Shown here one piece after another: positions 5,529 to 6,574 of a stretch of DNA of 8,491 nucleotides (position 1 is its first letter; every line of letters starts with the position of its first letter). Location of the stretch: the IMG/VR virus record IMGVR_UViG_2548876935_000015; one strand, 5' to 3'. Made by a program: the position numbers and the translations under genes. The DNA is from a virus (lineage: Duplodnaviria; Heunggongvirae; Uroviricota; Caudoviricetes). The notes under the pieces were generated by a model that was not told the origin of the DNA, did not search any database, and saw nothing but the letters and a program-made list of their open reading frames with translations.

Positions 5529-5582
5529 GCTATATTAAAGCTTTAATTTCAGGCCCCATCGGATCACACATGGAGAGTTTTT

Positions 5583-5672
5583 ATGAATAACCCCGTCTGT
5601 CTTGATGACTGGTTGACTGGCTTTAAAAGCTTATGCTGTACTTTGGCCGTAATAGCTCTGCTAATAATATAA
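5583..5672 (+). CDS. Candidate small hydrophobic protein (29 aa)
   Basis: ATG at 5583 preceded by GGAGAG 5-6 nt upstream; translation [29 protein letters not shown] has a hydrophobic C-terminal segment. Too short for the ORF track; speculative. Confidence 0.3.
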
Positions 5673-5820
5673 TAAGCAGACTCATTGTGTTTAGGGACAT
5701 TGTACTGGAAGAAAACATTTTAAACATCAGGCAAATAACCAAGTCACCAGCTAAATAATAAGTTAACAGACATGAGTCCCGGGATGAGATTCAACATTAC
5801 CATTGCCCCATTTAAAGCAC

Positions 5821-5844
5821 AAAACCCGCTCATCAGCGGGTTTT
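5821..5844. terminator. Bidirectional intrinsic terminator
   Basis: AAAACCCGCT-CATC-AGCGGGTTTT (10-bp stem). T-rich tails on both strands (plus: CUACUUUUUCUU; minus: GUGCUUUAAA after the U4 of the stem). Confidence 0.65.
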
Positions 5845-5889
5845 CTACTTTTTCTTAACCTCGGGTATACAAAGCCCATCGTTGAAAAA

Positions 5890-5918
5890 ATTTTATCCAT
5901 ATTTTTTGAAAAATGCAA
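5890..5918 (-). promoter_or_regulatory. Sigma70-like promoter on the minus strand, pointing into the 5821-5844 terminator
   Basis: Minus strand reads TTGCAT (-35, plus coordinates 5913-5918), 17-nt spacer, TAAAAT (-10, 5890-5895). The predicted start near 5882 would give a transcript of about 65 nt ending at the terminator. Confidence 0.35.
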
Positions 5919-6132
5919 GCATCACGTTACCATCTTCATTGAAAAACCTTTATCGTGTTACTTTTATCAATTGCACTTCAGTATAGAGTTATCCCAGACA
6001 GCACTTTAAAGACTTCTACATTACACACACCTTGTCTCCCCTTCTCGTCATATCTGCAAGACCGATATGCATGACGCAGTACATACGCTGAACTGCTTTA
6101 TCCATCTGCATATTCTAGTGCTAAAGCGACTT

Positions 6133-6160
6133 CAGTAGCAGAAGCAAAATTCTGCTACTG
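6133..6160. repeat. Perfect 11-bp inverted repeat (hairpin) with a 6-nt loop
   Basis: CAGTAGCAGAA-GCAAAA-TTCTGCTACTG. No U-tract on either strand, so not a canonical terminator; possible protein-binding site or RNA structural element. Confidence 0.5.
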
Positions 6161-6391
6161 TGCCAAACAGGAGGCCCACCTCGCCTGATGTGGCTAAAAG
6201 CAGGCACATAACAGCTAAGTATTTTCAACCAGAGAGAATCCTTAGCGTTGTGGTGAATGCGGCTCAGCGCACGCGGGTTAAGGTTGAGGCTGACAGTCGA
6301 CCTTCTGTGGATACCCACCCGCCTGGTGTGCAACCTTCGCCAGGCACCGGGAGGCACCCGGCACCACAACTTTATGCTGTGTGTAGTCCTG

Positions 6392-6437
6392 GCGGTACCA
6401 GTTTGTACCCTTGCTTCCGGCTGGTACCGCTCTTTTT
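6392..6437 (+). terminator. Intrinsic terminator-like hairpin on the plus strand
   Basis: GCGGTACCAG / CTGGTACCGC 10-bp perfect stem with a 19-nt loop, followed by TCTTTTT. No U-tract on the minus strand. Confidence 0.55.
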
Positions 6438-6574
6438 ACAAAACAGAGAAGAGCATCACCGGACGACGGGCTCATAACCCAATCCATCCGGGCGGCTGCC
6501 ACCGCAGGTGTTCTTCTCTGTTTTGTGGAGAAACCAACCGACCTTGCAGGGTCGATATGATTAGGAGTAGCAAA

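Follow-up and report, generated by a model that had tools for sequence, protein, structure and literature searches.

Probable internal deletion of the Q antiterminator, replication and immunity genes in a defective lambdoid prophage of Escherichia coli, and an STnc100-like RNA in its early-left leader

In phage lambda, the Q protein is required to carry RNA polymerase from the late promoter PR' through the terminator tR'. In the cryptic prophage Qin of E. coli K-12, the lysis genes are arranged in the order essQ-ydfR-rrrQ-rzpQ, together with cspI, cspB, cspF and ynfS, and an intact antiterminator gene, quuQ (ydfT), is located directly upstream. The early-left side of such genomes is illustrated by phage SfV, in which the gene order is cro, operators, cI, terminator, orf33, terminator, 400-nt leader, orf32/31/30, orf29, orf28, xis, int; here, orf32, orf31 and orf30 are the positional counterparts of yfdP, yfdQ and yfdR, and E. 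coli ATCC 11775 displays the same layout (cI, leader, yfdPQR, xis, int). These gene orders identify yfdPQR as the proximal part of the early-left (PL) operon. The second cryptic prophage of K-12 that is relevant here, CPS-53 (KpLE1), carries yfdP-yfdQ-yfdR-yfdS-yfdT-torI/xis-int, lacks the leader and has also lost the immunity region between yfdO and yfdP. Among the RNAs encoded in prophages, STnc100 and PasD, which are reported to be related (bioRxiv 10.64898/2026.05.13.724894), are treated as small RNAs of unclear function (PMC12370729; bioRxiv 10.64898/2026.05.13.724894).

We analyzed a stretch of 8,491 nt of viral DNA (hereinafter the window) that is 100% identical to contig AIAQ01000221.1 of the draft E. 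coli assembly GCA_000446365.2. The window encompasses a late arm on the minus strand, with a lysis cassette and several cold-shock morons, and a divergently oriented early-left arm that ends, on this contig, with yfdR (Table 1); no tRNA genes were detected anywhere in the window. Both cspB and cspI are preceded by a full-length cspA-type thermoregulator leader identified with Rfam (for the cspB region, 159.4 bits, E 1.5e-42). The interval of interest is the exact gap between the stop codon of cspF and the start codon of yfdP (5529-6574). Comparison with related prophages indicates that this gap very probably marks the place where an internal illegitimate deletion took 9,845 bp out of a single defective lambdoid prophage, one that appears, judging by its closest relatives, to combine a Qin-type late region, an e14/SfV-type immunity region and an SfV/CPS-53-type early-left operon.

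Table 1. Coordinates of the genes, regulatory elements, RNA structures and the deletion junction in the window
Feature	Position	Strand	Basis or remark
cspI, moron	1351-1566		
rzpQ, Rz-like, DUF2514 (Pfam), last gene of the lysis cassette	1927-2424	-	ORF; RefSeq annotation of the CFSAN004176 prophage
rrrQ, endolysin, truncated (135 aa)	2547-2954	-	ORF; list of mismatches to the sister prophage
ydfR-family gene (DUF1327), between holin and endolysin	3276-3827	-	ORF; Pfam
essQ, class II holin	3832-4047	-	PF04971
cspB, moron (CDS 4800-5015), with its own cspA-type thermoregulator 5' UTR	4737-5176	-	Rfam RF01766
cspF, moron, antisense to the late operon	5316-5528	+	
ynfS, 29-aa small protein	5583-5672	+	Pfam PF23697, E 3.8e-22; annotated in K-12 Qin with equal spacing
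10-bp GC-rich hairpin with T runs on both strands	5821-5844	both	terminator scan; identical in K-12 Qin
Orphan late promoter PR' with pause element	5918-5875	-	ungapped alignment with lambda PR'
PR': TTGCAT	5918-5913	-	followed by a 17-nt spacer
PR': TAAAAT	5895-5890	-	followed by TTTT
PR': pause element TCAACGATGGG	5885-5875	-	
Decayed 3' remnant of a QuuQ-type Q gene, ~19 codons, internal stop	~5950-6009	-	tblastn; translation; K-12 comparison
First 164 nt of the 1.55-kb segment that leads, in undeleted relatives, to intact Q	6010-6173		
Deletion junction	6172/6173		2-nt microhomology 'AG'; joined positions 9,845 bp apart in the sister prophage
STnc100-like structured RNA, early-left leader, now without PL	6217-6439	+	Rfam RF02076
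STnc100-like RNA: core	6244-6373		
STnc100-like RNA: closing helix	6247-6255 with 6362-6370		
STnc100-like RNA: pseudoknot	6280-6286 with 6331-6337		
STnc100-like RNA: invariant hairpin 21-mer	6345-6365		
STnc100-like RNA: terminator-like hairpin	6392-6430		U run to 6437
yfdP-proximal leader module, separate mosaic unit	6390-6574	+	
Leader module: long hairpin	6443-6521		
Leader module: small hairpin	6537-6556		
Leader module: Shine-Dalgarno sequence	6563-6567		
yfdP	6575-6937	+	early-left operon, proximal
yfdQ, DUF2303	7003-7827	+	early-left operon, proximal
yfdR, 5'-deoxynucleotidase	7955-8491	+	early-left operon, proximal

The key comparison is with a sister prophage in E. coli CFSAN004176 (NZ_CP014583.1), from which the window differs by 4 substitutions and one 9,845-bp deletion. 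Positions 1-6173 of the window match the sister with 99.95% identity (3 mismatches) and positions 6172-8491 with 99.96% identity (1 mismatch), both matches being on the same strand and spaced 9,845 bp wider than in the window. A recombination scar had been suspected by the earlier note, and this comparison places it at 6172/6173. Nucleotide alignment with the two K-12 prophages, from which the note had expected the breakpoint to emerge, brackets the junction (Qin homology stops at 6007 and CPS-53 homology starts at 6556), and the breakpoint itself was mapped via CFSAN004176. CPS-53 was considered, and rejected, as the source of the right breakpoint: its homology starts only at 6556, and the leader is absent from K-12. 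In the undeleted flanks of the sister, no IS ends, att-like repeats or long direct repeats were found at the two endpoints, which have only the dinucleotide 'AG' in common; on the left side, a perfect 11-bp hairpin (6133-6160) is found at a distance of 13 nt from the junction.

The junction is rare. The segment 5400-6700 is contiguous in none of the 5,426 complete E. coli genomes, the two halves are not joined in any of the 50,697 phage records, and a scan for the exact junction returned no match among the GTDB species representatives or the JGI metagenome contigs. This absence, along with the draft status of the assembly that contains the matching contig, could be taken to indicate a chimeric contig, that is, an assembly artefact. 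However, an exact-protein look-up with YfdP, the only route by which further carriers were found, yielded four additional, independent assemblies that share the identical 40-mer junction and each match 5.9 kb of the window with 99.98% identity: GCA_000703225.1, GCA_002999675.1, GCA_910593615.1 and GCA_910593925.1, on contigs of 2.4, 0.4, 5.4 and 4.8 Mb, respectively. The presence of the same junction in these assemblies, in three of them on megabase-scale contigs, implies that it is inherited, and there is no repeat at the junction that would mislead an assembler, only 2 shared nucleotides; the probability of an artefact is accordingly close to nil. Given that close relatives (GCA_003015325.1, GCA_001721205.1 and CFSAN004176) are undeleted, the short allele appears, on sequence comparison, to be a recent, lineage-specific deletion. 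The arrangement found in the window is not shared by any intact phage among those sequenced.

What the deletion would have removed can be read from the sister prophage, where the block between the arms contains 15 annotated coding sequences. Starting from the late side, these are a small hypothetical gene; ydfT, encoding the Q antiterminator (250 aa); genes for DUF968, KilA-N, RusA and N6-adenine methyltransferase proteins; yfdN; a gene for an HTH replication-type (O-like) protein; a second small hypothetical gene; ash; a DUF4222 gene; ymfL; ymfT (cro-like); ymfK, encoding a LexA/cI-like repressor; and a hypothetical gene on the reverse strand (a small moron). Directly after the ymfK terminator, there is a near-consensus promoter, TTGACA-16-CATAAT (positions 22528-22555 of locus L002), overlapped by half-sites of the TGTACC type, which are found again between ymfT and ymfK; we take this promoter with its operator half-sites to be PL, in which case PL lies inside the deleted block. 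The deletion would thus have extended from the distal part of the spacer between Q and the lysis genes to a point just upstream of the early-left leader, eliminating intact Q, the replication genes, cro, the repressor and PL with its operators all at once, and stripping yfdPQR and the STnc100-like leader of PL and the repressor. A prophage altered in this way would be locked, that is, incapable of induction, replication or lysis. The diagnosis of a cryptic prophage made in the earlier note is therefore upheld, with the loss now extended from Q to the replication genes, cro/cI and PL.

The viable, isolated phage PhiR63_1 (PV340573.1) shows that the two arms belong to one phage type. Its left arm is 99.89% and its right arm (6390-8491) 96.3% identical to the window, the arms diverge in the same way, and the 10.3 kb that separates them contains Q, O, Rha, ymfL, Cro and cI. 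The earlier note had interpreted the gap as a mosaic junction at which recombination between a Qin-like and a CPS-53-like prophage fused the late cassette to a foreign, inverted yfdPQR module. The impression is understandable because, in K-12, the modules are split between two separate cryptic prophages: K-12 Qin, whose late genes follow the order seen in the window, is 95.9% identical to it over 3622-6007 and 91% identical over 366-2964 but is unrelated to it beyond 6007, and CPS-53 is 95.8% identical from 6556 on. Furthermore, in several complete genomes, e.g. NZ_CP027437.1, the two arms find their best matches at sites separated by megabases. Nevertheless, CFSAN004176, with 4 mismatches in 8.5 kb (99.95% identity), and PhiR63_1 each carry both arms in one genome and in the same relative orientation, and a simple deletion fully accounts for the window, so that neither an inversion nor a second element is needed. 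The attribution of the arms to different prophage types is thereby contradicted, and a fusion of this kind is most improbable. Nor does the opposite orientation of the arms imply a rearrangement: yfdPQR is the early-left operon, as in SfV, which normally diverges from the PR/late arm, and its direction in the window appears, from these gene orders, to be the ordinary divergent lambdoid layout.

Sequence comparison alone gives no polarity, and one could argue that the short form is ancestral and that the 9.8-kb block was inserted in the relatives. However, the block comprises the collinear core (Q, nin-like region, replication genes, cro, cI and PL) that is equally placed in all the related viable phages (PhiR63_1, SfV and, for the immunity region, ST64B); its absence leaves yfdPQR without PL and the late operon without Q, and the orphan PR' and the promoterless leader make sense only as leftovers. 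Every related viable phage has this block as its collinear core, which makes its gain in the relatives very unlikely, and we favor the internal deletion.

The left part of the gap retains traces of the lost control region. None of the nine ORFs of at least 40 aa in 5529-6574 gave a Pfam match, and no Q-like ORF was detected either with Pfam or when the Q protein encoded by the sister prophage served as a tblastn query. The small protein gene ynfS is the only credible protein gene in the interval. These results bear out the earlier note's description of approximately 1 kb without a convincing protein gene, the 29-aa YnfS giving the sole Pfam match, and its statement that the interval contains no Q gene; the sensitive protein search, by which such a gene might have surfaced, found only a decayed 3' fragment. 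The 'frameshifted hypothetical protein' annotated by PGAP at 6250-6560 in the two annotated relatives inspected, CFSAN004176 and ATCC 11775, we read as an artefact over structured RNA. The right third of the gap (6217-6439) is occupied by a structured RNA of the STnc100 type and is not an empty spacer.

The fragment recovered by tblastn consists of 18 C-terminal residues of Q (6006-5953, minus strand). The translation of 6009-5950 on the minus strand reads KCCLG*LYTEVQLIKVTR*, compared with KCWQEEAYAEVQLRKVTR* in intact Q. The homology with K-12 Qin ends at 6007, i.e. 58 nt into the 3' end of quuQ, so that the gene that is intact in Qin is represented in the window only by its last ~19 codons in decayed form; the spacing of 278 bp from ynfS to the Q stop codon is the same in Qin, and the same PR', pause element and terminator are found there downstream of Q. 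The edge of the remnant appears, from these alignments, to be an older mosaic boundary. Since the same remnant is present in CFSAN004176 and PhiR63_1, it predates the deletion; in these two genomes, the decayed remnant is followed by a 1.55-kb insert, intact Q and a second, degenerate copy of the sequence downstream of Q. The Q protein of the relatives belongs to the Pfam family PF03589 (Antiterm), with CxxC zinc motifs, and differs in family from lambda Q.

The late promoter itself is retained. The earlier note implied that the promoter and qut site were missing along with Q; contrary to this, a lambda-like PR' with a pause element is still present on the minus strand at 5918-5875. The element TCAACGATGGG is a lambda-type sigma70 pause-inducing element that includes AACGAT, and the pattern TAAAWT-N4-TCAACGATGGG, which also matches lambda, occurs once in the window, with 0 occurrences expected by chance; in K-12 Qin and in the metagenome contig L006, it is found 55 nt downstream of the stop codon of intact Q. 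PR' escaped a generic promoter scan of the window, its -35 hexamer, TTGCAT, fitting the consensus at only 3 of the 6 positions. Approximately 30 nt beyond the PR'/pause pattern, the hairpin 5844-5821 is followed on the minus strand by TTTTGTGCTTT; it is predicted to terminate transcripts in both directions, namely the PR' transcript on the minus strand, in the role of tR', and that of cspF-ynfS on the plus strand.

From these elements, the fate of the lysis cassette can be projected. PR' would still initiate and pause, but without Q, transcription would halt at tR', ~40 nt downstream, and S, R and Rz would consequently not be expressed. The earlier note's view that the cassette lost its activator is in agreement with these observations: intact Q is in the deleted block, and only the decayed remnant stayed behind. 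In addition, R is truncated. A T at 2547 (G in the sister), one of the three left-arm substitutions relative to CFSAN004176, is a nonsense mutation that shortens rrrQ to 135 aa, compared with the full-length 177 aa (534 bp in the sister prophage). The 135-aa allele was found on 7 contigs, and because it also occurs beside intact Q on L006, the truncation is independent of the deletion. By this reasoning, expression of the lysis genes should require a compatible Q acting in trans, a role that could be filled by another Q of matching specificity encoded elsewhere in the genome.

To the right of the scar, the surviving leader is highly structured: the fold of 6200-6574 has an energy of -161.7 kcal/mol (z = -6.2). 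The segment 6217-6439 scores 46.5 bits against the full model of Rfam RF02076 (STnc100), with E 9.5e-8, just below the gathering score of 47, and the leaders of ATCC 11775, phiES15, SfV, 118970_sal3 and ST64B score from 45.4 to 35.1 bits, with the four phages among them at 35-41 bits. Judging by these scores, the window-type leaders appear to be a divergent STnc100 subgroup embedded in early-left operons. The invariant 21-mer CACCGGGAGGCACCCGGCACC was found in at least 120 IMG/VR contigs, its flanks forming 39 clusters at 85% identity. Pairing in the closing helix amounts to 84% among 37 representatives, and both partners have changed in 5 of its pairs (e.g. G-C in 19 vs A-U in 13). Its covariation score of 0.194 exceeds both the 0.105 obtained with shuffled data, in which none of 500 shuffles came as high, and the scores of slid controls (0.125 at most). 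Complementarity also exists between the linker that follows the first hairpin and the apical loop of the hairpin before the last (in the window, AAGGUUG with CAACCUU), and the paired sequences vary between clusters; within a molecule, the pairing averages 7.4 bp, compared with 5.9 ± 0.2 for permuted partners (0 of 20,000). This complementarity points to a pseudoknot that is unmarked in the Rfam consensus line. Taken together, these data suggest a conserved pseudoknot and a covarying closing helix as features of STnc100-family RNAs. Over its full 400 nt, the leader is 96-98% identical to those of SfV, SfIV, SfII and other phages, and the yfdP-proximal module is 96-98% identical to its counterparts in mEp460, cdtI, Stx2/Stx2c phages and PhiR63_1.

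In unrelated phages, the STnc100-like RNA occupies the same place within the early-left operon: it follows the repressor gene and precedes the first early-left gene. No N gene was seen between the repressor and the leader in SfV, ST64B, PhiR63_1 or the CFSAN004176 prophage. In phiES15, an uncharacterised gene lies between the repressor and the leader. A scan of the window for promoter-like sites between the junction and yfdP found none, the best in window-type leader copies reaching 5/12. A promoter of their own was also considered for STnc100 copies in general and discarded, since promoter-like hexamers were present, in a crude scan, in only a minority of the copies. It is conceivable, although we consider it improbable, that the RNA is a pseudoknotted cis-acting element that acts on early-left transcription, either as an attenuator or as a put-like antiterminator, rather than an ordinary base-pairing small RNA; the position of the RNA, the invariant hairpin, the covarying helix and pseudoknot, and the missing promoter lend support to a cis-acting role. 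If this were the case, a put-like leader RNA would let polymerase read through its own terminator into yfdPQR-xis-int. Homology with the put RNAs of HK022 (putL/putR) was rejected: comparison of the leader with HK022 using blast yielded only chance 9-14-mers, and an Rfam scan of the HK022 immunity region gave no STnc100 match at E up to 10. A candidate boxA of the rrn/lambda type in the leader (GCTCTTTTTACAA, 6428-6440) was likewise discarded, the pattern with up to 2 mismatches being absent there and at chance level elsewhere.

The event described here is ordinary prophage decay; the allele is undescribed, but the kind of event is well known. The value of the analysis lies mainly in annotation, in that the 'missing Q' does not denote a new architecture but a known phage type carrying a lineage-specific deletion allele. 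The locus also offers a clean example of permanent prophage locking, in which a single illegitimate deletion would take Q, the repressor/cro switch, the replication genes and PL, and self-promoted morons (the cold-shock genes, gnsB and others) survive. The morons with their own promoters, including cspB, cspI and cspF, should be the sole parts of the prophage that stay active, and the orphan PR' with its terminator might respond in trans to a Q of matching specificity from another prophage in the cell. The structural evidence on STnc100 is the only mildly novel material and is relevant to research on prophage RNAs.

Compared with the known systems, the left side of the locus is a lambdoid late control unit without its activator. 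As in lambda, a promoter, a pause element and an intrinsic terminator precede the lysis genes. Lambda PR' (TTGACT-17-TAAATT-TGAC-TCAACGATGGG) has spacing identical to that of the window PR', without gaps, and 34 of the 52 positions are the same by manual count of the ungapped alignment. The predicted PR'-to-tR' transcript is ~65-70 nt, whereas the lambda 6S RNA is longer, at 194 nt, and upstream of the late promoter, where lambdoid phages have the Q gene, the window has only the decayed remnant. On the other side, the order yfdP-yfdQ-yfdR behind a conserved leader is that of the SfV/CPS-53-type early-left operon, but the repressor-controlled PL beside cI is absent. The leader RNA shares with STnc100 (RF02076) the invariant GGUGAAU, the invariant hairpin CACCGGGAGGCACCCGGCACC, the closing helix and the 3' terminator and differs from it in the first hairpin, the lack of a promoter of its own and the location within the PL leader. 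PhiR63_1 and the CFSAN004176 prophage have the same late arm (99.9% identity), early-left arm (96-99.96%), orientation and Q remnant as the window and, unlike it, retain the ~10-kb block with Q, replication genes, cro, cI and PL; in PhiR63_1, moreover, the endolysin is full-length and the set of lambda-like head and tail genes is complete.

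The leader of the early-left operon consists of parts with different distributions. Its STnc100-like part (6244-6373 (+) in the window) resembles a prophage RNA family (Rfam RF02076), and an alignment of 37 copies of this family, from IMG/VR, phages and the window, revealed a strongly covarying closing helix of 7-9 bp. STnc100-family RNAs are also likely to form a pseudoknot, in which the linker 3' of hairpin 1 pairs with the penultimate hairpin's loop (6280-6286 with 6331-6337 in the window). This pseudoknot is not marked in the structure line of the Rfam consensus. The yfdQ-yfdR intergenic region (7819-7998 (+)) gave another STnc100-like match, which is weak (22 bits, E 0.18) and may have arisen by chance.

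The leader next to yfdP (6390-6574 (+)) is a separate mosaic unit whose start, near 6390, coincides with the 5' border of the terminator hairpin (stem from 6392). It is common to mEp460, the cdtI phage, Stx2/Stx2c phages and PhiR63_1, at 96-98%; all of these lack the STnc100-like part. Within this unit, an extended helix of some 25 bp (6443-6521) is predicted to be able to sequester the U run that belongs to the hairpin before it. The arrangement resembles an attenuator.

On the other side of the deletion junction, at a distance of 13 nt, lies a perfect 11-bp inverted repeat (6133-6160; CAGTAGCAGAA-GCAAAA-TTCTGCTACTG), which may have promoted breakage or slippage at this point. The possibility that this repeat is a terminator was ruled out because it lacks a T run. 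Farther left, the 3' remnant of Q, as judged from sequence comparison, marks an older mosaic event. In relatives, the Q remnant and a functional-looking PR' are followed by a 1.55-kb insert, then by intact Q, and then by the same post-Q sequence in degenerate form; the two post-Q copies make up an imperfect direct repeat, about 141 bp in length.

Within the late region, the rrrQ endolysin gene (2547-2954 (-)) carries a nonsense mutation at 2547-2549 (-), with T versus G in the sister strain, which shortens the protein from 177 to 135 aa. The truncated allele is present on 7 contigs, among them a metagenome contig (L006) that encodes an intact Q. The cspB and cspI morons, each preceded by a full-length cspA-type leader, have retained their own cold-shock control.

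Coordinates of RNA elements and of the older mosaic event
Feature	Location	Strand	Remarks
cspA-type thermoregulator leader, full-length	window 4737-5176	(-)	Rfam RF01766, 159 bits; upstream of cspB
cspA-type thermoregulator leader, full-length	window 1305-1721	(-)	Rfam RF01766, 110 bits; upstream of cspI
Older mosaic event	window 5950-6009	(-)	Q 3' remnant
Older mosaic event	L002 13260-14811 and 14812-14952		undeleted sister prophage
C4 antisense RNA + IsrK	L012 24245-24433	(-)	PhiR63_1, in rha gene
C4 antisense RNA + IsrK	L013 409-597	(-)	ST64B, in sb41
C4 antisense RNA + IsrK	L015 226-414	(-)	SfV, in orf37 ('immunity region')

In the related phages scanned, which were PhiR63_1, ST64B and SfV, C4 antisense RNA adjoins IsrK (64-84 bits in Rfam), and the part of the genome bearing these RNAs falls within the deleted block in the lineage of the window. 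The early-left operon on the source contig also ends early, after yfdR: there, yfdR is followed (L005 1-4464) by genes for a LysR regulator, an alpha/beta hydrolase, an MFS transporter and a P4-type integrase, whereas in SfV and K-12 CPS-53 it is followed by yfdS, yfdT and xis. The homology of K-12 CPS-53 to the window begins just 19 nt 5' of yfdP. Between yfdP and yfdO, a replication-gene fragment, K-12 CPS-53 (L010 4879-5605) lacks cro, cI and PL; this loss of the control region is independent of, and analogous to, that in the window.
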